Below, piece by piece: positions 2,074-17,821 of a stretch of 17,821 nt of DNA (positions within the stretch are counted from its first letter, which is position 1; every line of letters begins with the position of its first letter). Made by a program: the position numbers and the translations under genes. The notes below the pieces were generated by a model. That model was given only the letters and a program-made list of their open reading frames with translations, was not told the origin of the DNA and did no database searches. Source of the DNA: Leptospirales bacterium. Lineage in GTDB: Bacteria; Spirochaetota; Leptospiria; Turneriellales; JAOUFE01. The stretch covers positions 1 through 17,821 of the forward strand of contig JBEQLE010000080.1 in the NCBI GenBank assembly GCA_040326155.1, in the 5' to 3' direction.

Positions 2074-4614
2074 ATGAAGGCGCAAATTTGCAAGAAATCG
2101 TTTAACCCACGCATAATCATAGCAGTCAGCTGTTTATTCATTTTTATAAATGCAGGCACTCTATTTTCCCAATCTTCAACTAAAAGCAATATCGTTATTG
2201 ACCCTTATCTTGAGCAGATGGATAAAACAACAAAGCTTCTTTTCTTTGCCCAAAACGGAAATATTCGGGAAGTTGAGAAACTTTTAAAAGCAGGTATAAA
2301 ACCGGACGTGCGCGATGCGAGTAAACAGAGTGAAGGTGAAACCGCTTTATTTAAGGCGATCATGTGCGGTGAGATCGAACTCATAAAACTGTTATTAGAA
2401 TCTGGGGCAGACATCAACGCCGTAGACGAAGCCGGAGAGACACCTCTATTCACTGCTATCATGGTGGGTTATTCCGATATCGTGCACTACCTTATACAGC
2501 ACGGAGCCCATGTAAACCAGCGCAGTAAAAAGGGATTTTTGCCGACATTGATAGCCGCAGATCGAGGTCACCTGGCTATTTTAAAAAATCTGCATAGGAA
2601 CGGAGCCCGTCTTCATCAACCGTCTTCGGACGGTTTTACTCCTTTAATGGCAGCGTCTAAAATGCACCCTGAAGTAGTAAGATATTTACTGGAAAACGGA
2701 GCCGATGTCAATGCCGTAACGAATTACGGAGGCACGGCGCTTATGGTAGCGGTCCACACCGGGAATCAGGAAATTACTGAACTGCTTCTTGAACATGGCG
2801 CAAAAGTCGGATTATTGACGAAGAATAAAAGAGGTGTTTTTACGCACATACAAGCTTATTATAATGGAAAAAGAGCAGAACAAATAAATTCAATATTTAA
2901 AATCCTTATACACAAGTGCATCGAGGAAAAAGGGTGCATAACAAATAATTCTGCTTTGTTCTTTAGCCTGTTGCAATTGCGCCAACAACCGAACATATCT
3001 ATGCCTAATGATTGGAGTGAAAAGTTATACACATTTGCCCATATTATCAATCATCCCAATGAACAAGGTTTTCTTCCGCTGGATATTGCTCTGGGTTTGC
3101 AGTTTGAGGGTGAAGCAAAGTGGATCGTAGAGAAGCTGAAGAAACACGGAGCCAAGCAGACTATACCAGATACATATACGCACATCACAAAATTACTCTA
3201 TGAAAAAAAATGGAATTTAGTCAAAGATTCCATAGAGAAAATAGATCTGGAAGAATATTTTACATACCTGAATTCATTAAGAAGGTATTCCGAATATGGT
3301 TTTAAAATCTCGTATTATCTTTCTGGCAAACTGGCAGAACAAGGAACCTATATTCGTGGTATGACAATCGGCAAGGAGCAAGTGAAAGATCTATGCAAGA
3401 AAAATAACTTTCATGCTTTCGACATCATCTATTTTTCGAGAAATTCCAGTGCGCACATGAGTTATACGTTAGCCGTGCAATTCATAGAGAAGTGTCCAAT
3501 AGATTTTACCAAAAAATATCTCTCTAAAGTAGCCAGACAAAAGAGTACCCAAAAACACGAAGACCTGCAAGAATCAATATACTCATACCTCAAACGAAGG
3601 ATGGTATATCCAAAAACCCCCCTTTCAAAAGAGAGATTGAAGCTAGCTCTTGGTTACCTTAAGCAAAGCGGTTTTGAGTTTTCCAAACCCGAGCTTCTAG
3701 CTGCGGCTTTTCGTGGGGGCAACATCGATGCTCTGAAACTTTTAATATCTTTTGAAAACATTCACGCTAATTTTGATGAACAGGGAAACGGCGCCTTGCA
3801 CTACATTCTATTATTTTCACAAGGGAACAAAAAGGCATCTAGCACAAAGTATCCCCGTTATTCCGAAAAGAGTTCTTTGCAAAACTACCGGGCATTTGTG
3901 TGGGCGGTAGAAAATATAAAAAACTATGACAAAGCAAATCAAAATGGAGTCACCCCGCTCATGCTGGCAAGCGCCGAAGGCTATTACAGCCTTGTAAAAT
4001 TATTATTAGAAAAAGGGGCCGATGCAGCGCTAAAAGACAAATGGGGGCTGAGCGCCATAGACTACGCGGTACTTTATGATCACACAGCTTTAATTCAACT
4101 TTTTAAGCAACCAGAACTGGTGAAAAAATCACAATCAAAGTTTGCCGCCTGGGCGCAAAGTCACGAAACATCACCAAAAAACAGTGAGTGGCTGAAGTTG
4201 CCTGCCATACAACGTTATCTGGCTCGCTTCTTTCCTTCGGTAAAATTCCAAAAGGAACCGGTTCAGGAAATACCCTGGCATCATTATATTAATCACTGTG
4301 TGATGAGAGATGACATTTATAGAAACCGCACGGCGAATGTAAAAAGGTGGATAGAGCTCGGTTATTCTCCCAACTGCGCTAGCTCTCTTGGCGCCTTTAC
4401 ATCATCTACTGGAATAGAAATTGCAATTCGAAAAGCCTATGTAGAGATGGTCCGCGTGCTATTAACCTATCCCGGAATTAGAATCGATAACATGGATGCA
4501 TGGATATGGACACCCGAGTTCAAGAAAGATATCGAAAACAAAAATATCATTCGTGGTCTAATAGAGGCATATCGGAAAAAATCAATAACAATAAGGCACA
4601 AAACCCATGAATAA
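2074..4614 (+). CDS. Secreted/periplasmic ankyrin-repeat protein
   Basis: N-terminal hydrophobic signal-like segment. Ankyrin repeats (GETALFKA, GETPLFTA, GFTPLMAA, GGTALMVA, LLESGADINA) in the N-terminal third, plus a later cluster (GNGALHY, GVTPLMLA, GLSAIDYA). Confidence 0.9.
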   Translation: MKAQICKKSFNPRIIIAVSCLFIFINAGTLFSQSSTKSNIVIDPYLEQMDKTTKLLFFAQNGNIREVEKLLKAGIKPDVRDASKQSEGETALFKAIMCGEIELIKLLLESGADINAVDEAGETPLFTAIMVGYSDIVHYLIQHGAHVNQRSKKGFLPTLIAADRGHLAILKNLHRNGARLHQPSSDGFTPLMAASKMHPEVVRYLLENGADVNAVTNYGGTALMVAVHTGNQEITELLLEHGAKVGLLTKNKRGVFTHIQAYYNGKRAEQINSIFKILIHKCIEEKGCITNNSALFFSLLQLRQQPNISMPNDWSEKLYTFAHIINHPNEQGFLPLDIALGLQFEGEAKWIVEKLKKHGAKQTIPDTYTHITKLLYEKKWNLVKDSIEKIDLEEYFTYLNSLRRYSEYGFKISYYLSGKLAEQGTYIRGMTIGKEQVKDLCKKNNFHAFDIIYFSRNSSAHMSYTLAVQFIEKCPIDFTKKYLSKVARQKSTQKHEDLQESIYSYLKRRMVYPKTPLSKERLKLALGYLKQSGFEFSKPELLAAAFRGGNIDALKLLISFENIHANFDEQGNGALHYILLFSQGNKKASSTKYPRYSEKSSLQNYRAFVWAVENIKNYDKANQNGVTPLMLASAEGYYSLVKLLLEKGADAALKDKWGLSAIDYAVLYDHTALIQLFKQPELVKKSQSKFAAWAQSHETSPKNSEWLKLPAIQRYLARFFPSVKFQKEPVQEIPWHHYINHCVMRDDIYRNRTANVKRWIELGYSPNCASSLGAFTSSTGIEIAIRKAYVEMVRVLLTYPGIRIDNMDAWIWTPEFKKDIENKNIIRGLIEAYRKKSITIRHKTHE

Positions 4615-5323
4615 AAAACTTTCTAAAAACCACTTTCCCGCACATAAAAAATTCTATCTTTCGAGATTTGTTTATTCCCGATTTCTTACAACCTGGCTTA
4701 TACTTCTTTGTACATTCATATATCTTCCCATAGTAGCAACTGAGTTCCAAACCATTAACGTGGGCCCGAAAGATGCCGGCCGCCTCAATGATATTATAAA
4801 GAAAGCCCCCGCCCGATCAAAAATTGTCTTTCGAAAGGGAACCTATCATTTTACAAAGCCAATTCGAATAACGTCGAAAAGTCACCTGAACCTGCAAGCA
4901 CAAGAAGGCGTCTATTTTATCTTAGACAACCTTCATTTAAGCGTTTTAAGGATAGGCTCTTCTGATAACATCAAGCTATCAGGATTTCATATTCGCCACC
5001 GTAAGCCAGTGTCTAAAGAAGAGTATTGTTATGGCCAGGTAATCACAATTTCTCGCTCACACGATCTTGAACTAACAAACCTCGAACTGAACGGTTCCGG
5101 AACTGTGGGAGTCCATATATACAGCGGCTCTTCCATCACCATAAAAGACTCCTGGTTTCACCATAACTCCATCGCCGGAATCTGGATGCTGAGCTTTGTC
5201 GATAACATCGTAATTCAAAACAACCGCTTTGACAATAACCCGGTACACATAAAAACCAGAAGGTCAGGTTCGCACGAATGGAAAAAATATGCGACACTGG
5301 ATGGTAATACATTTGATGATTAA
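4607..5323 (+). CDS. Right-handed parallel beta-helix repeat protein, probably exported
   Basis: IVFRKGTY, ITISRSHDLELTNLELNGSGTVGVHI, ITIKDSWFHHNSIAGI and IVIQNNRFDNN are beta-helix rungs. Has a hydrophobic N-terminal segment and overlaps the ankyrin gene by 8 bp. Confidence 0.8.
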   Translation: MNKKLSKNHFPAHKKFYLSRFVYSRFLTTWLILLCTFIYLPIVATEFQTINVGPKDAGRLNDIIKKAPARSKIVFRKGTYHFTKPIRITSKSHLNLQAQEGVYFILDNLHLSVLRIGSSDNIKLSGFHIRHRKPVSKEEYCYGQVITISRSHDLELTNLELNGSGTVGVHIYSGSSITIKDSWFHHNSIAGIWMLSFVDNIVIQNNRFDNNPVHIKTRRSGSHEWKKYATLDGNTFDD

Positions 5324-5519: not shown

Positions 5520-5843
5520 TTATTGACACTTGCCAGATGAGCAAGAACCGCTCGGGCACTCTGAGTCACTTCTGCATCTGCCGTCCGGGGCATTGGAGCA
5601 CTTATTATCGTTGCATCGCGCGCCTGAGTGACCGCATTCGCTATCGCTTCTGCATCGGCTTCCGGCAGAATCTGCACAATGGTGGTCAAAGCATGGGACG
5701 CCCGAATGACAATCACTGTCAGTGCTACACTGACCATAATCGCCGGCAGAGACGTAGGTCGGGGTGGCAACAAACACTGCAAACGAGAAGAGCACGAAAA
5801 GTGCCGACAGCATGGAAAGTAAAGTAATTCTTTTTAGTAACAT
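5520..5843 (-). CDS. Small secreted cysteine-rich repeat protein (12 Cys, three CxxDS[DE]C-x-C-x4-C modules)
   Basis: Signal peptide ending ...YVSA. Repeats CSTDSDCHSGVPCFDHHC, CRSDSECGHSGARCNDNKC and CRSDSECPSGSCSSGKC. RBS AAGGAAGGA and a sigma70-like promoter lie upstream. Confidence 0.85.
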   Translation of the reverse strand: MLLKRITLLSMLSALFVLFSFAVFVATPTYVSAGDYGQCSTDSDCHSGVPCFDHHCADSAGSRCRSDSECGHSGARCNDNKCSNAPDGRCRSDSECPSGSCSSGKCQ

Positions 5844-6702: not shown

Positions 6703-7215
6703 TCATATCTTTTTGCTTATTAATACCATATGGTTACCAAGACCGCTGTAATCTTTTTGTATACAAATGCCATTTTCGACAGTATCACTTTTCTGTGGTA
6801 ACATGCCGATCTTCTGGTGAAAATTGATCGATTCCTTATTAGATGGCGAAGTAATTGCCTTTATACATGTTTTTTTGTTTTCTCTAGAAATATTCTCAAA
6901 ATGACTAAATAACTTTTTCGCATAACCATTATTTCTTTGGTTTTTGTGGGTGGCTATCATATGTATATAAGCGGCGTCTGTTTCTTTTTGTGAAAAAAAT
7001 CCGAATAAATAAGCAATCACATTGAATTTTTTCTTTATCACAAAACATGTATTTACAAATTGATAAAGAAATATCGGATGATGCAGAATTTTTATTTTCT
7101 TTATCTTTTCCTCATCTACCTCCCAGTAATCTTCGATGTTTTCCAGAATAATGTTGTAGTCCGTTTGTTGAAGCTGTGTGATTTCGAAATTATCAGAAAT
7201 AACCTTTGTTTTCAT
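6703..7215 (-). CDS. GNAT family N-acetyltransferase
   Basis: AYIHMIATHKNQRNNGYAKKLF (acetyl-CoA binding motif A) and TSPSNKESINFHQKIG (motif B). Start placed at ATG 7215, which forms an ATGA overlap with the upstream stop. Confidence 0.88.
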   Translation of the reverse strand: MKTKVISDNFEITQLQQTDYNIILENIEDYWEVDEEKIKKIKILHHPIFLYQFVNTCFVIKKKFNVIAYLFGFFSQKETDAAYIHMIATHKNQRNNGYAKKLFSHFENISRENKKTCIKAITSPSNKESINFHQKIGMLPQKSDTVENGICIQKDYSGLGNHMVLISKKI

Positions 7216-7412
7216 TTGAGATCTCCACAATAATCGATTAGTAATAAATTTAATTTTCCTATAAAGTAATTTAATTCATTATTTGAGAGTTCTAACGGAG
7301 GTACAATTATTACACAAGCTCCATTATACCCACCATGAAACAAGACAATTCCATGTTTTAATGCCAAAGTTGCAAACATTAAAGAATTATCAATAGCGGG
7401 GTTGCCCTTGTC
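7212..7412 (-). pseudogene. C-terminal remnant of a class-III PLP-dependent aminotransferase
   Basis: DKGNPA...ALKHGIVLFHGGYNGACVIIVPPLELSNNELNYFIGKL matches the G(V/I)...GNVIRxxPPLxIS/T..EL tail of class-III aminotransferases. The N-terminal part is absent, replaced by IS21 sequence. Confidence 0.65.
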
Positions 7413-7660
7413 ATCTGCACGAGTTCTGTATTTTCTGGGACTTTTTGTCTGGCTCGGTAACAACCCAGACTTCAAATATTTCTGGGCACTCTTTTCACAC
7501 ATGTTTCCGGCAGCTGCCGCCTGTCGGATCGTCTTATCTTTATTCCTTTCAAGTATCATAATTTTTACCTCTCTGTCTGTTTTCATGACCCATTTTCAGG
7601 GCTCTTACTGAGCGGTAATTTTAATTGTCGTTGGAAGGTACTTCTAATTGTCGCTGATCA
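7413..7660 (-). mobile_element. istA: IS21-family left-end remnant with the 5' part of istA
   Basis: ATG 7586 gives MKTDREVKIMILERNKDKTIRQAAAAGNMCEKSAQKYLKSGLLPSQTKSPRKYRTRAD, matching the IstA N-terminal HTH (AAA.AGM.EKTA.KY...G.LPS...R..RTR.D). The end starts TG at 7660 and carries two 19-bp direct repeats (7614-7632, 7637-7655; 16/19 identical), typical of IS21 ends. Confidence 0.82.
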
Positions 7661-7857: not shown

Positions 7858-8172
7858 TTACCGATTTTCAAGATTTTGTCTTGTATCCCAAACCTGTAAT
7901 ATAATAAGGTTGGCATCTTCCATTATATAAATTATCTGATATTCACGATAAATAAAACAACGATTGGTTATCTTATTCGAAAAATTTTTAATTTGTTCAG
8001 TATCGACTTGTCTACCCAGCAAAGGTTAATCTTTCAACAACCTGAAAATTCGGCGAAAACCAAAATCAAGTTTATTGCTGTATATTTTATTGCCGTTGTG
8101 TTTATACCAATAATCGAGAATTTGCAGGCGTTGCGCTTGAGCGCGGTGTGTTAAAATTATTTTGCCAGCCAC
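7858..8172 (-). pseudogene. RelE/ParE-superfamily type II toxin with one in-frame stop
   Basis: Not in the ORF track. From GTG 8172: MAGKIILTHRAQAQRLQILDYWYKHNGNKIYSNKLDFGFRRIFRLLKD*PLLGRQVDTEQIKNFSNKITNRCFIYREYQIIYIMEDANLIILQVWDTRQNLENR*. TAA at 8026-8028 (codon 49); otherwise one frame. The PxxG, YxIxY and WDxRQ motifs are present. Confidence 0.82.
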
Positions 8173-8393
8173 TGGTCGATCATCCGATTGGCTTTATCGA
8201 TATCTATTGTTTCTCCGTTTTTATATTGTTCATAAGAATGTTCGAGTTCTTTTATTTGGTCCAGCGAGATTTGAATCGTTTCCTTCAAATTCTTACTTTC
8301 TGTTAAAATGTCTTGAACAATATTTAACGTATCTTCATCTTCTGCCTTTTCGATGGCTTCATGTAAATGGACTTTTAATTGTGTAATAGACAT
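8157..8393 (-). CDS. Putative type II antitoxin (partner of the RelE/ParE toxin)
   Basis: 78-aa acidic protein ending EQYKNGETIDIDKANRMIDQWLAK. Overlaps the toxin start by 16 bp. TATAAT at 8402-8407 lies 8 nt before the ATG with no RBS, so it is possibly near-leaderless. Confidence 0.75.
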   Translation of the reverse strand: MSITQLKVHLHEAIEKAEDEDTLNIVQDILTESKNLKETIQISLDQIKELEHSYEQYKNGETIDIDKANRMIDQWLAK

Positions 8394-8510: not shown

Positions 8511-8560
8511 ATTAATTACAAATTACGAATTGTGGATCGATTTCTTAATTCGTAATTAAT
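8511..8560 (+). repeat. Heptamer palindromic element, family B, copy 4
   Basis: 48/50 identical to 5420-5469: 19-bp arms and the same ttgtggatcgat loop. Confidence 0.9.
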
Positions 8561-8699
8561 CAGCAATTAACCAGGCCGCCGCCCTCCGTTGCCAATAAAC
8601 AGCAAAATAAAACATCACAAAAGAACCTAAAAATGGGTCCGATACTCTTTCTACAATTCGATCTTTTACGGACTCTGCAATCTCTTTTATGGGTGTCAT
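8556..8699 (-). pseudogene. Possible truncated membrane-protein gene fragment (47 aa)
   Basis: MTPIKEIAESVKDRIVERVSDPFLGSFVMFYFAVYWQRRAAAWLIAD*. Resembles the 'ERxSxPFLGxFxxxWxxxNW'-type N-termini of hypothetical membrane proteins (from memory). The stop lies inside repeat B4. Confidence 0.35.
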
Positions 8700-8778
8700 A
8701 GGCTATACTGATTTTGTAGGACATATTATCAATTAGAATCATGGTTATGTTTTCATACCCACCCGAAACGATTTCGTA

Positions 8779-8852
8779 AATAGCGTCGGGGGTAGCGGCG
8801 GCTCTTTTAGCCAAAGCGAGGGGGCAGACTTGCACCCCTTTATAACTCAGAG
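8779..8852 (+). repeat. GC-rich intergenic repeat, family A, copy 2
   Basis: 8779-8833 is identical to 642-696. Lies just downstream of the radical SAM gene. Confidence 0.9.
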
Positions 8853-8875: not shown

Positions 8876-9949
8876 CTACAACCAGCATTGAGGATCTTTA
8901 CCATAAATATCCCCGGTGTTTGCATGGGCGATAGCACGGCACCCCTGGCAATATGCTTCATACTTACAAGAATGACAAGAGGTATTGTGTTTCGCTGATA
9001 GCGTGGGTAGATTCGACAAAGTATCTTTGTTGAAATCTTTCAATAGCGAAGGCTGGTATGAGGATAACAAACCGCATAATATAATCTCGGAGCTGCTGTT
9101 TATATTTAAAGTACGACAATACGCATCGCACCCGATATGCCCGGGCGGAATATTTAACTCTTCTAGATTCAGAAGACCCAGCTCGCCCAGCAGGGGAACC
9201 CACAACTTCTCTTTAAAAGCCAAATGAAAACCACTCTTATAGTGCTCCGAGTAATAATTCAAAAGATGTACTAAAAAAGATCTAAACTCTTGTGCGCTTA
9301 TTTCTCGATAATCAGTTGCCTCTTTTAATTTACCGATATGCGCCATGCGACCTACCATAATTCCGTCAGGTTGCGCTTCACGTATTTTTGGTAAATTCTC
9401 GATAATTGATTCAAGATTAAAACTTCCGACTGTCAGGTTCCAGAAAACGGGCATCTCCAACTGCTGCAACATCGCTGTTTTCTCTTTTAAATCGTCAAAC
9501 GTCTCATTGCCTCGCGTTTCGTTATGCAGTTTCTCATCGCCCAGAAAGGTAAACTTTACTCCTTTGCATCCGTGTAAATCGAGAAGATACGCGGCATCTT
9601 CTGTCAGGGTAGACGGATTTGTCTTTAAAACAAAAAGTAAATTCATTTTATCTAAAAAATAAAGTAACTCTTCAAAGTGGGAATAAAGCAACGGGTCGCC
9701 TCCGCAAAGGGAAAAAATCGGTTGCAACTGTTTGCCCCGATAATAGGAAGATACTTTTTTGATAAATTTTTTCAATAATTTAAAATCAATTTCTGACGGA
9801 TTGGGTTGCGAAAAATTTCCGCAAAAAAAGCAGTTGTTTCTACACTTTCCGGTTAACTCAAACTCAATATAAATATTTTGCGCATTTGATTGCGCCAATT
9901 CTATAAACTGCGTTTCAATTTCTTGCTTAAACTGGTTTTCGTACTTCAT
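8876..9949 (-). CDS. Radical SAM/SPASM-domain protein (peptide-maturase-like)
   Basis: CRNNCFFC (CxxxCxxC) and GGDPLL. C-terminal SPASM cysteines: GCDAYC...LC...CHSCKYEAYCQGCRAIAHANTGDIYGKDPQC. Confidence 0.92.
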   Translation of the reverse strand: MKYENQFKQEIETQFIELAQSNAQNIYIEFELTGKCRNNCFFCGNFSQPNPSEIDFKLLKKFIKKVSSYYRGKQLQPIFSLCGGDPLLYSHFEELLYFLDKMNLLFVLKTNPSTLTEDAAYLLDLHGCKGVKFTFLGDEKLHNETRGNETFDDLKEKTAMLQQLEMPVFWNLTVGSFNLESIIENLPKIREAQPDGIMVGRMAHIGKLKEATDYREISAQEFRSFLVHLLNYYSEHYKSGFHLAFKEKLWVPLLGELGLLNLEELNIPPGHIGCDAYCRTLNINSSSEIILCGLLSSYQPSLLKDFNKDTLSNLPTLSAKHNTSCHSCKYEAYCQGCRAIAHANTGDIYGKDPQCWL

Positions 9950-9959
9950 AAATTAACGT

Positions 9960-10012
9960 AAAAGAAAATCCCACGCCCTCTCTTTGCAATATTATGGCAA
10001 AAAGAGAGCGCA
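9960..10012 (-). terminator. Putative intrinsic terminator or attenuator between the RHS and radical SAM genes
   Basis: Minus strand cgctctctttttgc-cataatatt-gcaaagagagggcg forms an imperfect stem followed by tgggattttctttt. Confidence 0.5.
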
Positions 10013-10053
10013 GAATTTAACATAACGGGATCCTTTTTATTTAATAACGGTAT

Positions 10054-13000
10054 TTACCACCCCTTAAAAAACTTTTTAACAGCCCTCCCAATGTCATTTA
10101 GAACACTTTCTACTTCTCTGGCAAAATTATCGATCAAGTCTTTCAGACTTTTTCCGTTAAAGAGGTCGAAAATCCCCTGCATAAAGCCTGCAAACATCTG
10201 CATCGCGACAAGGACTGAGCTCAATATAATATTTAAGGTGAAAAGAGCTACTCCAATAACAAATACTACGACTTCATATACCATTAGCAGAGCCAACAAA
10301 ATCGGGTAAAATACCAATGTGGCGATACCCAGCATTATCCATCCAAGAGCATCCCGATCCCCGTTAGCCCATTTATCGGCAAATTCGGAATTCCAAAGAA
10401 ACTTGGCGTTATGAACGAAGTTTGCCCCTGTTATAAATGAATAAGCCCCACCTATTATCCATAATACATCGGCAGTAATATTATTCATCAGTACGCCAAT
10501 ACTGGTTGCTCTGTTCGAAGTCAACTCTTTTGTAATCATAGGCATCAGGCTTGCACCTGCGGCGTCATGCCCTTGAGACATACAGTCTATCCCCGTTGTG
10601 CATTGGGCTGTCAAACTATCCTGATTGCGGCCCGGCCCCGTATAATTATGTAAGGGTATGGCGCCGCCGCCAACCGGGCTGTGCCCTGTCGGATCAACGT
10701 ATTTTACCGGGTTACCCAGGGTATACATATAGCGGTTAAAACCTTGAGAAATCTGGCCCTCACCCGGTAGTTCTGTATCTGCGGTTGTAAAGCGCCCGGA
10801 TTCCGAATCGTACATTCTGGCGTTGTAGTTATACAAACCGGTTTCCCTGTCTTCTTCCTGGTGCGTGTACTTGTAACGAAGAATATCTGGTCCGGACGAC
10901 TGGTCCCGATCAATTTCACCATAGGGAGTATAATTGATACGCGTTAAAAGGCGACCCTGGCTATCGCTGAGGTAACGCACACTACCCACATGGTCAGGGT
11001 GAAAAAAGAAGGCGCCTTCAACCGGATATCCGCCACGTGCCGATACTTCGAGATTTCCGCCTGGTTCACCGACATCGGATATATCATCCGGTATGTTTTC
11101 TGGAATACTCGACCAGAAATCCGTATCAGACGCATCAACATTAGAAATATTACCGCAACCGGCGCCGAAAAACCAGAAGAATGCGGTAAATATAAGTGGT
11201 GTAGAATAATGGTATACTTTTCTTGCAAAACCCAAAGACGCTGTGTTCGCTTTGCCCAGGTTGTAAATAAATACCATTAAAAACAGTGCAATCGCCAAGA
11301 GAAAAAATACAAGTACCGATTGTTTTATATTTGATATATCGCTGACCCATAAATTCGACAGTAAATAGGCTTTTTGAATAAACCCGGACGCATTCGCCGG
11401 ATTAGCCATCTGTGCGGCAACCGCCTCCGATACTTTATTAAAGGCATATATGTTACCGGATTTTCTCGTTATCTGGGCTACAATTTCATTGTACATTCCA
11501 TAGACATAGTTAGTATGCGTGAAAGATTGACTTCCACCAACGCGTTCGCTTTGCTTCCCGCCCTTTTCATCCGTAATTTGAACTTCAAATAAAGGTTCGG
11601 TCTCAGACAAAAAGTGAAAATAGTACGTTATACGCCCGTCTTTTGTTTTCTTAACCGTTCTTGTACCTTTATCGTTATATTGAAACTCAGCTATTTTACC
11701 ATTTTTCTTTTGGTTAATACTAACCAGTTGGTTATTCACATTGTAATGGAAAATTCGGTCATTATGCTTAACCATGCTCCCATTTTTATCATAAGCATAT
11801 TTATTTCCAATTGTATCAGATGTAACGGTTTGCGGTTGAGACTTGTCCTCATAAAAAAGTTCCTTTTCTCCCTTTTGCAACAAGTTGCCTCCGGGTGAAT
11901 AGCTGTAACTTCTTGCGCCGTATGCGCCCTGGGCATAAGTTAAACGATTTAATCCGTCATATTCAAAATGCTCCGAAGAGCCATTGTCAATGTTATCTAC
12001 AATAGATAACATATTTCCCTGGCCGTCCATAGAGTATTCCAGATCTCGCACCTGAATGCTCTCACCCTCATTATCAAATAAATTAGTTTTAACGCCGGTA
12101 GGTTGCATGCTCAGCCGATCATAGGTAACCATATCTCTTGCACCGTTACCGGTTATTCTCACCAGTTGAAAATCCTTGTCTGGACCGGTATAAGTAACTA
12201 CAGGGTGTCCATCTGTGTCCGGCTCGCTTGCGTCGTACCAACGCACCTGACGAAGGTAACTCGAATTCGAATAGATATTTCCAATCGTAGAACCATCAGG
12301 ATAAGTAATTTGAGTTACTTTCTTTTCGCTATTATATTTAGCCGAAAACCCAAACTTTCGATCTCCAATTTCTTTTACCATATTTGAGATGTTACCGCGT
12401 TCATCATAGCTATAACTGGTTTTACCGGAAGCATCGTAGACATGGCTTAAATGACCAATAGAATTGACCTGCGTGGGGTCATCATAAACATACGTAACTG
12501 CTTTGTTGCGCGGGAATTTAGGTTTACCAAAAACCGTGTTGTTTTTCAAAACGGCGCCATCCTCATCACCGGATAGTTCGTCGCCTACTACTACGTCAAG
12601 TTCATCATCAGAAGAGTTATACGATTTTCGCGCCATTCGATTCATGGCGTCATATTGAAAATAGACGGAATCTCCTTTTGGGTTCACCTGCTGAATTAAA
12701 TTTCCGTTGGCGTCGTGTTTAAATTGCCAAACTTTTGATCCTTCTACAATTTTTTCCGTACGCTCCAGAGTATCATAGGTAGCAACAGTGACACTGCCAT
12801 CAGCGTCTTGCGTAATCTGCTCCAGCGGATTATATGTCGTTTCCAGGCTCGATAGTAAAACATTGCCATCATAATTTTGGCGAATGATTTCTCTGCCCCT
12901 GGCGTCCGCAACCACCCGCTCCAATTTATTATTTACGTCGTACTGTTCCACCACATTGCTTTTATAGGCCAATTGCATGAACGATCCGTCGTAATTTTGA

Positions 13001-16000
13001 ATTTTGGAAATTCTTCCGTATGAATCATAAGAAAATATTTTGAATACCGGTGTCTGTAACCCCTCCAAATAGGGCTTCGATATTTTAATATGGTTTTCAT
13101 CGCTTGTCCCATAAAATTCATATTCGCTTATTATGTTATCTTGTGAAACGTTACCATTTTCATCGACAATTGCACCCTTGGCAATTTTTTTATAGATTCG
13201 ATTTAAACCGTCATAATAGTGCCGTATATAACTATAACCACTCGGCGATTCATCAGAGTAACGAATTTCTATATATTGGCCACTTGGGTCACCTTCACCT
13301 TCTTGATAAAGAATCTCTTTCGAATGTTTGCCACCAGGATAATTTAATTTTGTTAATCTGTAAAACGGGTCAATTTCGCTTGATGAACTATTTCCATTGC
13401 TATCACTCATTGCCACTACCGTAACATAGAGAGGATCATACTCGTACGTTTGAACATGGCCGATAGAGTTTACTTCGCTTATCGCCTTGGTATGATAATC
13501 GGTTTCATATTCTACCGAATACGTATTTCCGTTTGCATCGGTTTTTTGTATGACATTACCGTAAGAATCGTATGCAAAAGTATCAGAGACAAACGAATTC
13601 GTTGAGTTTAAATACCGCTCTTCTTTGACTTTGTTATGGTTAACATAAGTAAATTTATCCCAGTCAACGATCACTCCCTGCACCAGTTTTTTAACGTTTA
13701 TTTGACGATCAAGAATCCACAAGTCCGTATCAATTTCATAAGTATATTGAAACTCTACTGTCTCTACAGAGTCTGCCTGATCAATAACCGAAACAATTTG
13801 TCCATACCCATTGTACGTATAGAATTTACTATTTTTTAAAGAAAACTGACCGGATTCATATTTTTCATAAATCTGTTGATCTGTTTTTATACGATTTGTT
13901 CCAGGAAAAATAGTAGATAAGTCCGATGAATATACATAAGAAAACCTACTCATGATTTGATTCTCGCCATTATATTCAGTTTCAGATAAATACACACCTT
14001 CGAATCCCGGATCCTGGCGAAAACTTTGAACTTTGAAACTTCCTATAAATTCATCTTTAATCGTGAAGTATTGAAAACCAAGTGATTTGGCATTGCTTCC
14101 CCGGCCCGGTCTATAACGCCGGTTTGCATAAGCGTAGCTTTTAAAAAACTCATTTCCCCGACCATCTGCCATGGAAATTCTTTGAACAACAAACCCGGCA
14201 TAGCCCAAAGAAATACCGCAGGGTGCATTATACCCCGTTCCGGTGGCTCCTCCGCAATTTTCGGTTAGTGGGTCGATTGCGCCCGAATGACTTGCAAGCG
14301 TTTCGTAGGAGACTTTAAAAGAGCTACCAAAATTATTTTGTATTTCAACAATTTTGTCATTTACTACAGGATCAGAATTTGCCATGTGTAGAAATTTATT
14401 TTCGATCGTTCCGTCCGAGACGGTGTAGTTAATATCCAGCAGTTGATCTCCGTTAAAATCTCCGAACTTCATAGACATGGAACAATCAGCTCCGCCGGTT
14501 TCGCTGATATTGTAAGTTTGTTCGGCGCTCAACCCTTGTGAGCGATTTTCCATAATCGTAAAATCCATATTACATTTATCATCTTTATTATCTTTCAATA
14601 TAAGATCAGCTCTTCGATCCCCATTTACATCCACCGGGAGCATTTGATACATCCCCGTTCTGGACGATGTATGAATTTGCTCAAAAGCGTTAAACCCCGC
14701 TCCATTGGCGGTCTGCAAACTTACATAGAGAATATTATCACCCGTATTTGAATTATAATCTTGTTTTAAATACATTAAATCGGATTTTCCATCACCGTTA
14801 TAATCGCCTGTCGTCACCTGCCAGTAGGTATCAGGTTCGGACAACTGATATGCTGTAATGAGCTGACTATACCCCCCGTCCTGGCTTAAAATGTATCGAA
14901 CTTGTACGCCGTCTTTTACATTATAAATAATGAAGTCACTATCCAGATCGTCATTCAAGTTTGCACTGGAAAAATACCATTGTGTATTCATCTCCAGAGA
15001 TTCAAAAACCGTTACGGGCGCAGCAAACCCCTGCCCTCTGTTTTTTTGACTTTGTAACATCGTTTTGTGTTCGCATGTCGAACAGGCGGTTTCATGGTCA
15101 GGATAATAATTATAATAATACAGCAGGTCCGTTAGACCATCCTTGTCTATATCTGCCGTACTTAGCGACCATCCAATTGCAACTTCATCGCCGGCGCGCG
15201 CCGTTGTTAATGAACCCCAGGATGACCCATTCCCTAAAGCATATTTAACCGCAGTTCCTTTCGAAAAAACCAGGTCTTTTTTACCGTCGCCGTTTATATC
15301 AGCCGCCTGTAACTCCCAGCCTGTAATATTATAAACAAAGTTCGCCGATTGGGAGGTCCACCCTGATGGTGTCGACAATACATAGGCAATATTTATTTCA
15401 GAACCCGTATCATGGTATCGCAATAAATCAGTTAAGCTGTCGCCATTGATATCAAATGCTGTAGATTCTGAATATACGCCACTTAAAGTTATTGCATCAA
15501 ACTGGGAATTATCGTTTTTCCCTTCAATCCAGCTAAACGTTAGCGGGGGTTTTGAAGAGACGCCGTCATTTCCAATTTCTTTAAGACCGCTCAACAGACT
15601 TCGACCGGTTGTGGTGCCGGTTTTATACTCCATTTCGTATGCGCGAATTAAATCCCCGTCCGTACAAAAGTCAAAGGCGCAATAAACATTTCCGGAAACT
15701 TTTATGGATTGAAGTCTTTTCGAAATTCTTTGAAAAGCGCCGCCCACGTATTTCTCTTGTACATCAGGACGTTCTTCATAATGAAATGTTACAGCATGCA
15801 GCCGAGAGATCCCGGCGCCTTTTGTATACAGAATTCGGTTTAAATATGGATATCCATCTGTGTTTTCATATTCATAGGTTATGGAATTATTATTTAAGTC
15901 AACAGCTGCGCGAAAACCCCAAAAGACAAAACCCTTTCCGTTATCTGCCATAATTCTTGAATTTCCGCTATCTCCGTCTTCATCTACACCAAAATAAAGC

Positions 16001-16437
16001 ACTTGCCCTCCAGGGGAGACGACCTTCCACCCGCAGGGTTCCTTCGGACCCAAACCGCATGAACCGTAAATTGGCGTATAACGATAGTATATTTCATTTT
16101 TTGTATGATAAACGGATTGATCTCCGGAGATGTCTACCAGCTCTCCTCCGATCCCGGAATAAGTAGCGTTCTCGTTAAAGCTTAAACCGTTAACGCCCGG
16201 ATGACGGCGAATGCTCGGAGCTCCCTGCACGGCCCAGCCCATACCCACTATTCCATTTCCCCCACCGGAGTTGTACATCAAACTCAGCGAAGGTTTTGCT
16301 TTATGCCGCCCTTCGGGAAGTTCTATTTCAACTTTTTGACTATACGAACCGTTCGAATTGACAACGCCAAATATGGCCCCAGGAACAAACAATGCAAAGA
16401 ATGCCGTCACTAGATATAATTTGTTAATAATTTTCAT
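10054..16437 (-). CDS. Large secreted SpvB/FG-GAP/TcdB-mid/YD-repeat RHS protein (TcB-TcC-like fusion, 2127 aa) with a C-terminal cargo domain
   Basis: Start at ATG 16437 (RBS GGAGAGG), followed by a signal peptide and the SpvB-like PSLSLMYNSGGGNGIVGMGW. Seven FG-GAP/VCBS Dx(N/D)xD loops (DINGDSLTD, DINGDGKKD, DIDKDGLTD, NLNDDLDSD, DYNGDGKSD, DVNGDRRAD, DFNGDQLLD), then YD repeats. RHS core FHPDHVGS...YTHQEEDRETGLYNYNARMYD...NRYMYTLGNPVKYVDPTGH. Confidence 0.93.
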   Translation of the reverse strand: MKIINKLYLVTAFFALFVPGAIFGVVNSNGSYSQKVEIELPEGRHKAKPSLSLMYNSGGGNGIVGMGWAVQGAPSIRRHPGVNGLSFNENATYSGIGGELVDISGDQSVYHTKNEIYYRYTPIYGSCGLGPKEPCGWKVVSPGGQVLYFGVDEDGDSGNSRIMADNGKGFVFWGFRAAVDLNNNSITYEYENTDGYPYLNRILYTKGAGISRLHAVTFHYEERPDVQEKYVGGAFQRISKRLQSIKVSGNVYCAFDFCTDGDLIRAYEMEYKTGTTTGRSLLSGLKEIGNDGVSSKPPLTFSWIEGKNDNSQFDAITLSGVYSESTAFDINGDSLTDLLRYHDTGSEINIAYVLSTPSGWTSQSANFVYNITGWELQAADINGDGKKDLVFSKGTAVKYALGNGSSWGSLTTARAGDEVAIGWSLSTADIDKDGLTDLLYYYNYYPDHETACSTCEHKTMLQSQKNRGQGFAAPVTVFESLEMNTQWYFSSANLNDDLDSDFIIYNVKDGVQVRYILSQDGGYSQLITAYQLSEPDTYWQVTTGDYNGDGKSDLMYLKQDYNSNTGDNILYVSLQTANGAGFNAFEQIHTSSRTGMYQMLPVDVNGDRRADLILKDNKDDKCNMDFTIMENRSQGLSAEQTYNISETGGADCSMSMKFGDFNGDQLLDINYTVSDGTIENKFLHMANSDPVVNDKIVEIQNNFGSSFKVSYETLASHSGAIDPLTENCGGATGTGYNAPCGISLGYAGFVVQRISMADGRGNEFFKSYAYANRRYRPGRGSNAKSLGFQYFTIKDEFIGSFKVQSFRQDPGFEGVYLSETEYNGENQIMSRFSYVYSSDLSTIFPGTNRIKTDQQIYEKYESGQFSLKNSKFYTYNGYGQIVSVIDQADSVETVEFQYTYEIDTDLWILDRQINVKKLVQGVIVDWDKFTYVNHNKVKEERYLNSTNSFVSDTFAYDSYGNVIQKTDANGNTYSVEYETDYHTKAISEVNSIGHVQTYEYDPLYVTVVAMSDSNGNSSSSEIDPFYRLTKLNYPGGKHSKEILYQEGEGDPSGQYIEIRYSDESPSGYSYIRHYYDGLNRIYKKIAKGAIVDENGNVSQDNIISEYEFYGTSDENHIKISKPYLEGLQTPVFKIFSYDSYGRISKIQNYDGSFMQLAYKSNVVEQYDVNNKLERVVADARGREIIRQNYDGNVLLSSLETTYNPLEQITQDADGSVTVATYDTLERTEKIVEGSKVWQFKHDANGNLIQQVNPKGDSVYFQYDAMNRMARKSYNSSDDELDVVVGDELSGDEDGAVLKNNTVFGKPKFPRNKAVTYVYDDPTQVNSIGHLSHVYDASGKTSYSYDERGNISNMVKEIGDRKFGFSAKYNSEKKVTQITYPDGSTIGNIYSNSSYLRQVRWYDASEPDTDGHPVVTYTGPDKDFQLVRITGNGARDMVTYDRLSMQPTGVKTNLFDNEGESIQVRDLEYSMDGQGNMLSIVDNIDNGSSEHFEYDGLNRLTYAQGAYGARSYSYSPGGNLLQKGEKELFYEDKSQPQTVTSDTIGNKYAYDKNGSMVKHNDRIFHYNVNNQLVSINQKKNGKIAEFQYNDKGTRTVKKTKDGRITYYFHFLSETEPLFEVQITDEKGGKQSERVGGSQSFTHTNYVYGMYNEIVAQITRKSGNIYAFNKVSEAVAAQMANPANASGFIQKAYLLSNLWVSDISNIKQSVLVFFLLAIALFLMVFIYNLGKANTASLGFARKVYHYSTPLIFTAFFWFFGAGCGNISNVDASDTDFWSSIPENIPDDISDVGEPGGNLEVSARGGYPVEGAFFFHPDHVGSVRYLSDSQGRLLTRINYTPYGEIDRDQSSGPDILRYKYTHQEEDRETGLYNYNARMYDSESGRFTTADTELPGEGQISQGFNRYMYTLGNPVKYVDPTGHSPVGGGAIPLHNYTGPGRNQDSLTAQCTTGIDCMSQGHDAAGASLMPMITKELTSNRATSIGVLMNNITADVLWIIGGAYSFITGANFVHNAKFLWNSEFADKWANGDRDALGWIMLGIATLVFYPILLALLMVYEVVVFVIGVALFTLNIILSSVLVAMQMFAGFMQGIFDLFNGKSLKDLIDNFAREVESVLNDIGRAVKKFFKGW

Positions 16438-16487
16438 ACTACCTCTCCGGTTAATTTTATTCATTAAAAATATCTTAATATTGTAAG

Positions 16488-16791: not shown

Positions 16792-17673
16792 TTATTGATG
16801 CATCCAGTTTAAAATACTTGATTTTCTGATGGGCAGACCGGGCATATAATAAAAATTCCAATTTATTATATTTTGTTCTATCAGCTCGTGTTCATAAAAA
16901 GAGACCACCACATTATGAAGTTCTCTTTGGCGATAATAATTGCACATAGTACGGGCTCTCTCGCCCGAAATCATTTCTAAGAAGGGGACGGGATCGTGTA
17001 CATGAAAGTGTAAAACCTTGCTTGAATAATTCCTGGAAAAACTAATGTGGACCCACTCGGATTTTTCCATCAGCCTCATCGCCGAGGGATGTAAAACCTT
17101 ACCGATATTTTTTTGAATAGCCTCTTGCTCATATTCATATCTTTTAACATCCGGATATACTTTGACCACATTTCGTCCGTTGAAATAAAAATCAAAACCA
17201 ATCAATAACTCATCATGCAGTGTTAAACTGCGCAAATCTTTGTTTTCCCCGTATAAATGAATTGCAGTTTCTATTTTTTCAGGATAATCTTCAATTATAA
17301 ACCATATCTTAAGGCGAGAGGATGGTAATTCTTCTCGTATATCCACACCCAATATAAACTGTTTAACTTTGCTCCAATCGAATTGGTCGTTATAAAATTG
17401 GGTAAACAAATCCCGGTTAAATAATATATTATCGTTTCGCGCCATGGTCTCAAATAATACCATCATTTTATTTAATTGTTTTTTCTTATGTGGATTTGGA
17501 AACCAGAGATTAAATCGTTTCGCGTCGACCTTTTGCCCCGACACTTTGCACGAACATTCAATTAGAACTTGTTCCATTTCCTCCTCAAAAGATAAAAATT
17601 CCGATAACGGATAACTATCTTTTGCATCAAAATAATCCAAATGCTCTCGTATGTATAATTTATTTCCGCTCAT
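16792..17673 (-). CDS. LynF/TruF/PatF-family (cyanobactin F-type, ABBA-fold) peptide prenyltransferase
   Basis: Family motifs in order: YIREH..FD...YPL..F, IECSCKV, RF.L.F, FDWSKV, GVDIR...SRLK, DYPEK, LIGFDFYFNG, FYY. Start placed at ATG 17673, because the ORF-track GTG at 17715 lies inside the IS3 inverted repeat. Confidence 0.88.
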   Translation of the reverse strand: MSGNKLYIREHLDYFDAKDSYPLSEFLSFEEEMEQVLIECSCKVSGQKVDAKRFNLWFPNPHKKKQLNKMMVLFETMARNDNILFNRDLFTQFYNDQFDWSKVKQFILGVDIREELPSSRLKIWFIIEDYPEKIETAIHLYGENKDLRSLTLHDELLIGFDFYFNGRNVVKVYPDVKRYEYEQEAIQKNIGKVLHPSAMRLMEKSEWVHISFSRNYSSKVLHFHVHDPVPFLEMISGERARTMCNYYRQRELHNVVVSFYEHELIEQNIINWNFYYMPGLPIRKSSILNWMHQ

Positions 17674-17689
17674 GTTTGTAAAATGGTTA

Positions 17690-17821
17690 TGATATGACCC
17701 CGAAAAAACGGACACACCTACGCAATTAATTTTACAGCATATTGAAATGGACTTCTGTAGCCCAGCTTCGAATGCTTCCTTTTTCTATTGTAGAATACTT
17801 CTATGTAGTCAAACAATTTTC
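17690..17821 (-). mobile_element. Right end of a second IS3-family copy, inverted, continuing beyond the window
   Basis: The reverse complement aligns without gaps to 6514-6645 (about 122/132 identical by eye). Encodes [23 protein letters not shown] and carries the IRR at 17690-17715. Confidence 0.92.

Follow-up and report, generated by a model that had tools for sequence, protein, structure and literature searches.

RHS and Tc cocoons carry soluble enzymes. Hydrophobic RHS cargos have, to our knowledge, barely been explored, SGS1 being the only structural example known to us. The small phospholipase A2 (PLA2) of parvoviral VP1u is covered in Pfam by a 'Phospholipase A2-like domain', which we take to be PF08398. 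PLA2 toxins borne on RHS proteins, two-helix pore toxins borne on RHS proteins and an RHS shell that hides transmembrane helices are all already in print. Zhang et al. (2012; PMC3482391) describe the Tox-PLA2 of polymorphic toxins as an RHS-borne domain with the fold of PDB 1kp4 and the motifs DxC[ST], CxxHxxxYxN and C, and the B19 VP1u study (PMC3626588) names Y130, G132, G134 and D154 for Ca2+ binding and H153, Y157, Y168, A174 and D175 for catalysis. Here we describe the 208-residue C-terminal cargo of an RHS protein encoded in a stretch of 17,821 nucleotides from a Leptospirales bacterium (contig JBEQLE010000080.1), the whole of which is referred to below as the window.

The division of this cargo into a conserved polar module and a membrane-insertion tail is well supported. 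Its best reading, which we favour tentatively and at rather less than even confidence, is that of a shell-shielded, membrane-anchored PLA2-like effector that would work like a small His–Asp PLA2. The features on which the argument turns are the following, with residues of the cargo numbered from its first residue.

10054 to 16464, reverse strand: RHS/TcB–TcC-type open reading frame (ORF) of 2136 residues, with signal peptide, SpvB, FG-GAP, RHS repeats, Rhs core and cargo (translation and domain search)
16354 to 16437, reverse strand: signal-peptide-like hydrophobic N-terminal segment, residues 10–37 of the protein (hydropathy)
10681 to 10932, reverse strand: Rhs-associated core, residues 1845–1928 of the protein, ending in DPTGH (TIGR03696 Rhs_assc_core, E 6.4e-19)
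10057 to 10680, reverse strand: cargo, 208 residues, residues 1929–2136 of the protein (translation and homologue searches)
10459 to 10656, reverse strand: conserved polar N-module with PLA2-like signature, cargo 9–74 (alignment, motif table, helices 30–40 and 57–84 of the AlphaFold2 (AF2) model)
10630 to 10650, reverse strand: HNYTGPG loop, cargo 11–17 (alignment and motif table)
10564 to 10587, reverse strand: DCMSQGHD helix, cargo 32–39 (alignment and motif table)
10459 to 10479, reverse strand: ITADVLW, cargo 68–74 (alignment and motif table)
10171 to 10353, reverse strand: hydrophobic stretch of 61 residues, cargo 110–170 (residues 2038–2098 of the protein), presumed to form a helical hairpin (Kyte–Doolittle scan and alignment)
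10057 to 10164, reverse strand: C-terminal amphipathic helix, cargo 173–208 (hydrophobic moment; helix 191–219 of a 220-residue AF2 model)

The RHS gene is the largest ORF of the window, and the database copy of its product (P0002), at 2127 residues, begins at Met10. RHS repeats were matched by PF05593 (E 3.5e-21), and the SpvB, FG-GAP and RHS domains all lie upstream of the Rhs core, a predicted layout that is the architecture of a fused TcB–TcC cocoon. The match to TIGR03696 is complete (model positions 1–76 of 76), and the core terminates in ...GNPVKYVDPTGH, the DPTGH ending at residue 1928; we presume the core to be an aspartyl autoprotease and DPTGH its cleavage site. The RHS repeats, the full core ending in DPxG and a variable C-terminal region, the cargo differing between relatives that have the core in common, make membership of the RHS/TcC-type encapsulated-cargo proteins well supported as judged from sequence. 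In searches of the PDB, the best relatives of the core were those of mosquito SGS1 and SGS4, followed by the Rhs cores of type VI secretion systems, including Tse5, teneurins and TcC cores; SGS1 was the closest solved relative (E 4e-13, and E 6.7e-13 in a second search).

Homologues of the cargo were collected with an exhaustive phmmer search of 1.84 billion representative proteins at a cut-off of E ≤ 0.001, which yielded six proteins, namely the query protein, P0003, P0004, P0006, P0007 and P0005. The last of these was excluded as a repeat artefact, its sole match being one 22-residue stretch found eight times over, and word-index searches with the RHS protein and the family alignments as queries added P0008, P0009 and P0013. 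By these searches the cargo family is tiny and unannotated; the seven relatives found carry the database names 'hypothetical protein', 'RHS repeat-associated protein' or 'FG-GAP-like repeat-containing protein', and tblastn for the cargo against plasmids and phages gave no match. A genome scan located two members, one in a Spirochaetia metagenome-assembled genome (locus L001) and one in that of a Leptospira biflexa (L002), both in RHS proteins with the architecture seen in the window, to which L001 adds a TcdB_toxin_midN domain. Loci L003–L006, in which the similarity is limited to 13–15 residues at the end of the Rhs core, were left out. Two ORFs on long contigs, P0013 (394 residues, 25-kb contig) and P0017 (445 residues, 407-kb contig), comprise Rhs core plus cargo, and P0006 (99 residues, 19-kb contig) comprises the tail only. 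By analogy, all three look like the orphan cassettes of polymorphic toxin loci.

In order to count conservation, six homologous N-modules, the window's protein included, were aligned (alignment A4). The only invariant columns are T14, G15, D32, S35, H38 and D39. The loop has the consensus H-x-[YFW]-T-G-[PAL], position 13 being aromatic in all six modules and position 11 His in five; the helix that follows has the consensus [ILV]-D-x-x-S-x-x-H-D, cargo residues 30–42 reading GIDCMSQGHDAAG; and a later helix is described by [IV]-x-x-[DN]-x-x-[WF], in which D71 is Asp in five of the six and is preceded by Ala in three. The original prediction, made by a model from the letters of the DNA, had placed in this cargo a YxGPG Ca2+ loop, an HD catalytic helix lacking the usual Tyr and a later AD aspartate. 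Translation of 10054–16464 (reverse strand) agrees with its reading of the 208 residues after DPTGH: HNYTGPG (11–17), H38–D39 and ITADVLW (68–74) are all present, the codons of H38 and D39 do occupy nucleotides 10564–10569, and the Tyr after HD is absent from this cargo as from the other members (6/6). The prediction had also staked its case on conservation of the HD and AD residues in homologous cargos, which held for HD in every member and for the later Asp in five of six, and failed at the latter position in P0003, which has Asn.

T14/G15, D32, S35, H38–D39 and D71 fall on three features of the group XIII PLA2 of parvoviruses, namely its Ca-loop Gly, its His–Asp dyad and the Asp of its second helix, a correspondence that the alignment supports in part. 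The catalytic-type dyad H38–D39 is invariant (6/6), and A70–D71 would correspond to A174–D175 of B19 VP1u. Within the family, 19–25 residues separate the loop Gly from the His and 25–34 separate the His from the Asp, compared with 21 and 22 in B19 (G132, H153 and D175, as named in PMC3626588). A pattern drawn up post hoc, [YFW]xG-x(15-26)-Dx5HD-x(18-36)-Dxx[FWY], was matched by 50 of 200,000 random 208-mers of the protein's composition and by 10 of 200,000 shuffles of the cargo; conservation across the six members is the more telling evidence for the signature than this estimate of chance.

The AF2 model of the N-module (predicted local distance difference test score, pLDDT, 54.5) places HD within a helix spanning 30–40 and D71 within one spanning 57–84. 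Searched with Foldseek against BFVD, this model gave 62 matches at E ≤ 10, and among the best 50 of these were 34 parvovirus or densovirus structural or 'PLA2-like domain' proteins, 7 unnamed proteins and 9 others. The best match had E 0.78, probability 0.89, TMq 0.48 and a root-mean-square deviation of 4.2 over 80 columns. We regard the fold evidence from this model as suggestive only. The original prediction had looked to a PLA2 fold for its confirmation, and what came of that is mixed: parvovirus and densovirus capsid proteins dominate the 50 best BFVD matches, none of which is significant and all of which were obtained with a low-confidence model, and the PDB provided no PLA2.

Several findings weigh against a PLA2. 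The BFVD matches all have E values of at least 0.78, none reaching 0.001; they amount to one weak match, because all belong to one family, and they lean partly on the same motif residues, through the amino-acid term of Foldseek, as well as on a model with a pLDDT of 54.5. Foldseek searches of the PDB with the whole-cargo model and with the N-module model found no PLA2 (best whole-cargo match E 0.66), and neither did sequence and profile searches of the PDB with the cargo, in which the best sequence match had E 0.31; the ESM atlas gave nothing usable for the cargo. No PLA2 family was matched by the cargo in Pfam or NCBIfam, or by the six members or their isolated N-modules in Pfam, at E ≤ 10, in searches whose HMMER filters discard most matches above E ~0.1 and might hide a very weak match to a PLA2 profile. 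Of the YxGxG loop, [YFW]-T-G is present in all six modules and the second Gly in the window's protein only (1/6). The Tyr of HDxxY is replaced throughout, by G, G, G, Q, D and G, and in B19 the mutation Y157F lowers activity from 0.254 to 0.003 (PMC3626588, Table 1). Asn replaces D71 in P0003/P0008. Finally, the tails described below retain an acidic residue inside the hydrophobic stretch, which a mere anchor does not explain.

Because matches to profiles and to the PDB are lacking, the Tyr and the second Gly are missing and the Tox-PLA2 motifs are absent, we have not filed the cargo under either the parvoviral PLA2 or the Tox-PLA2 family. The latter had been offered by the original prediction as one possible type, a suggestion at odds with the cargo sequence, in which neither DxC[ST] nor CxxHxxxYxN, the motifs given in PMC3482391, occurs. 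Pfam and NCBIfam searches with the whole protein and with the cargo gave no family for the cargo.

A number of matches obtained in these searches were considered and rejected. Potassium channels (E 0.0054), aligned through the hydrophobic part, and 3cvg (E 0.72) came from the PDB profile search. DUF1634 (E 0.0071; 16.9 bits against a cut-off of 27.5; one of the six members) was taken as a match of hydrophobic composition. The six isolated N-modules gave only chance matches in Pfam, to CxC6 (E 0.058) and DUF3085 (E 0.062), and PHROGs gave only tape-measure and holin noise for the window's cargo, at E values of at least 0.17.

Beyond the polar module, the Kyte–Doolittle scan shows residues 2038–2098 of the protein as a single uninterrupted hydrophobic stretch, and the last 36 residues have a hydrophobic moment of 0.82, a value reached by none of 5000 shuffles; the very hydrophobic remainder and amphipathic terminal helix claimed at the outset are therefore both present. 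In the six aligned tails, an acidic residue inside the hydrophobic stretch (E136 here) is found in every case, and G143 and F147 are invariant; beyond these two positions the tails diverge, some finishing in an amphipathic helix and others in a glycine zipper whose end is basic.

These tails bring in the main rival to a PLA2-like effector, namely a non-enzymatic, pore-forming or ionophoric cargo in which the lesion would be formed by the hairpin, an acidic residue buried within it, and by the amphipathic or glycine-zipper tail, the N-module serving in targeting, gating or metal binding and not in lipolysis. The 61-residue hydrophobic stretch with its conserved D/E and invariant G...F (6/6 aligned tails) counts in favour of such a cargo. 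P0007 and P0013 have glycine-zipper tails, which gave weak Gly-zipper matches in Pfam (E 0.023–0.22), P0006 consists of the tail alone, and the top whole-cargo Foldseek matches, none of them significant (E at least 0.66), include the alpha-pore-forming toxins AhlC, SmhB and ClyA. Tox-WTIP is a further parallel, being, according to PMC3482391, a two-helix hydrophobic toxin tip on RHS proteins and a predicted two-transmembrane pore former. However, its motifs RxxR (helix 1) and Wx[ST]IP (helix 2) are missing from the cargo, which has in addition a conserved polar module; the invariant T-G, D, S and H-D of that module resemble a catalytic or metal site, and no pore-toxin family was matched in Pfam by the cargo or the six members. 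On balance we consider a purely pore-forming cargo unlikely, while giving it serious weight.

On the PLA2-like reading that we prefer, the following sequence of events is proposed. The 208-residue C-terminus would be the cargo of a Sec-exported TcB/TcC-type RHS cocoon, predicted to be cut off after DPTGH by the aspartyl protease of the Rhs core and kept unfolded or partly folded within the shell, whose shielding would permit the synthesis and export of so hydrophobic a polypeptide. Its polar module of about 75 residues would supply, in the loop Gly, the first-helix His–Asp and the second-helix Asp, the minimal catalytic set of a group XIII secreted PLA2 (sPLA2), and its second module would be the hydrophobic hairpin (about 60 residues) followed by the amphipathic helix. 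After release, hairpin and amphipathic helix may enter the target membrane and keep the small lipase module at the interface, there to cleave sn-2 acyl chains, putatively in a Ca2+-dependent manner; lysolipids and inserted helices might then breach the membrane jointly. The original prediction had likewise envisaged an effector combining lipase and membrane-insertion modules within an RHS shell. The RHS cargo, the polar module and the insertion tail of that proposal stand, and its lipase is putative.

The N-module and the D/E-bearing helix occur together in all six cargos, which also suits a third explanation, that of another lipid-modifying enzyme embedded in the membrane, such as a divergent head-group transferase or hydrolase of the Lipocone type, or an unrecognized fold, with an intramembrane site formed by His38, Asp71 and E136. 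PMC12419801 describes Lipocones as toxin tips built of hydrophobic helices, for which the ancestral residue set is His (H2), Glu (H3) and Asp (H4), with a Gly close to the end of H4, and places some of them in two-gene systems with an outer-membrane beta-barrel protein; in the cargo, His, Asp and D/E lie on successive predicted helices, and in both L001 (8639–9358, forward strand, 239 residues) and L002 (8534–9277, forward strand, 247 residues) an ORF with a signal peptide overlaps the RHS stop codon. The details fit less well. There was no Pfam match to VanZ, Wnt, SAA, DUF2279, DUF4056 or DUF2238, and the TelC and PTDSS structures were not among the PDB Foldseek matches; the Lipocone motifs (D/K four residues before the His; S three before and N four after the Asp), as given in that source, misfit by eye, and the would-be H3 and H4 are separated by an additional hydrophobic helix. 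We judge this explanation improbable.

The surroundings of the RHS stop codon bear on whether the cargo is a toxin at all, and they contain one further feature.

9965 to 10018, reverse strand: 22-bp, perfect-looking hairpin and U-run, terminator-like, immediately downstream of the RHS stop codon (folding energy −32.3 kcal/mol, z −4.49)

The stability of this hairpin was matched by none of 200 shuffles; a simple consensus scan did not flag it. Between the RHS stop codon and a radical-SAM gene (8876–9949) there is no ORF of at least 25 residues except one 25-residue frame. Given the terminator-like hairpin and the lack of an ORF before the radical-SAM gene, no immunity gene is co-transcribed in the window, and no partner gene is conserved among the three loci (the window, L001 and L002): in the two latter, the ORFs that follow the RHS genes (P0010 and P0011) are not alike (E 1.2), match no Pfam family and have no counterpart in the window. 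The same findings speak for a non-toxic C-terminus that would attach the RHS shell or a fragment of it to a membrane, as an anchor or a device for adhesion, resembling what is proposed for the helices of mosquito SGS1 or for teneurins; the closest PDB relative of the Rhs core is indeed SGS1, whose shell houses predicted transmembrane helices (PMC9935623). Against this, the orphan core-plus-cargo ORFs (P0013 and P0017) and the modular, variable tails are typical of polymorphic toxin cassettes, and the invariant polar residues suggest catalysis. A non-toxic anchor is accordingly the explanation to which we give least credence, and we regard it as very doubtful.

A second hydrophobic element lies within the RHS protein itself, upstream of the cargo.

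11140 to 11337, reverse strand: internal hydrophobic helix pair, residues ~1710–1775 of the protein, ending in FGAGCG (hydropathy and comparison of relatives)

This insertion follows the last YD repeats and precedes the Rhs core, and the loop that joins its helices is positively charged. It is kept in 4 of 4 full-length relatives, the other ends reading FGMGCG, FGTGCD and MVSCT. We know of no comparable hydrophobic helix-pair insertion in a solved RHS shell; it might tether the protein to a membrane, serve as a site of internal processing or take part in release. The FGAGCG at the end of the second inserted helix is lipobox-like.

The remainder of the window, in which Rfam and tRNA scans found nothing, contains several genes that we record as side observations. 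The G+C content is 0.45–0.46 at 10001–11500, which covers the cargo and the end of the Rhs core, compared with 0.32–0.43 over most of the window. A gene for a DUF5838 protein (16792–17715, reverse strand; E 5e-54) immediately precedes the RHS gene on the same strand; neither L001 nor L002 has a counterpart of it upstream of its RHS gene. The radical-SAM protein (8876–9949, reverse strand) has CxxxCxxC near its N-terminus and a Cys-rich C-terminus that by eye resembles SPASM; two small ORFs without a family (8560–8835 and 8157–8393, reverse strand) come after it, and the three may form a peptide-modification cluster. Further away are a 124-residue ORF without a family (7212–7586, reverse strand), the first half of which looks by eye like a transposase helix-turn-helix and the second like the end of another enzyme, so that it may be a chimeric remnant, and a secreted-looking protein of 107 residues (5520–5843, reverse strand) with repeated Cys-rich units of the RCRSDSEC type and only a weak match to the EB module (E 0.0074). 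On the forward strand, an 846-residue ankyrin-repeat protein with a hydrophobic N-terminus (2074–4614), whose repeats hint at interaction with eukaryotes, is followed, with start/stop overlap, by a beta-helix protein resembling NosD and pectate lyases (4607–5323). In L001 and L002, P0010 and P0011 look beta-rich by eye, with an aromatic or near-aromatic residue at the C-terminus, and could be outer-membrane barrels.

A literature search found neither this cargo family nor its parvoviral-type signature nor the fusion of such a signature to a conserved hairpin, and no description of cellular relatives of the parvoviral PLA2. We put forward, as a speculative proposal that is more probably wrong than right, that the RHS cargo family of these spirochaetes is kin to the parvoviral group XIII PLA2, in a cellular and membrane-anchored form: a minimal His–Asp lipase without the canonical Tyr, fused to a transmembrane hairpin and delivered by a cocoon. 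If true, it would be the first bacterial kin of the viral enzyme and possibly its evolutionary source, would represent a new mode of placing an sPLA2 at its substrate, and would provide a bacterial counterpart that defines a minimal active site of an sPLA2 lacking the Tyr. Should the link to PLA2 fail, the invariant T-G/D/S/H-D set would mark a new membrane-acting toxin domain.

The likeness to the parvoviral VP1u PLA2 lies in three elements that come in the same order at roughly similar distances (an aromatic-x-Gly loop, a D-x5-H-D helix and an A-D-x-x-aromatic helix), in the small helical module without obligatory disulfides, and in the tethering of that module to a large carrier from which it would be exposed only at delivery. 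The cargo differs in having no Tyr four residues after the His (0/6) and a second loop Gly in only one member of six, in its longer His-to-Asp interval (25–34 versus 22), in matching no hidden Markov model, and in the fusion of its module to a transmembrane hairpin in a bacterial host. With Tox-PLA2 it would have in common a PLA2-type, lipid-attacking tip on RHS-repeat proteins, reported from many phyla, spirochaetes among them, in PMC3482391. However, the sequence around the His, S-x-G-H-D-A-A-G-A, has no CxxH and no YxN, so that the defining motifs are absent; the cargo has no match to the prokaryotic PLA2 of Pfam, and the hydrophobic tail is absent from Tox-PLA2.

TcB–TcC (BC) cocoons such as TcdB2–TccC3 (PDB 4o9x) have the same SpvB, beta-propeller and RHS shell, with a hypervariable cargo after the Rhs core, whereas here none of the three loci (window, L001, L002) has a TcA gene, a hydrophobic helix pair is inserted before the core, and the cargo is hydrophobic rather than a soluble enzyme. 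SGS1 (PDB 8fjp) is a eukaryotic gene product without an HD module, and its cargo was not among the PDB matches of this cargo at E ≤ 10. Its RHS shell nevertheless shields predicted transmembrane helices behind an aspartyl-protease site, according to PMC9935623, and SGS1 is a direct precedent for hiding a hydrophobic cargo in an RHS shell. With a module of catalytic appearance fused to a transmembrane hairpin, the conserved bacterial cargo offers, beside it, a tractable model of how such a shell shields and hands over membrane proteins.

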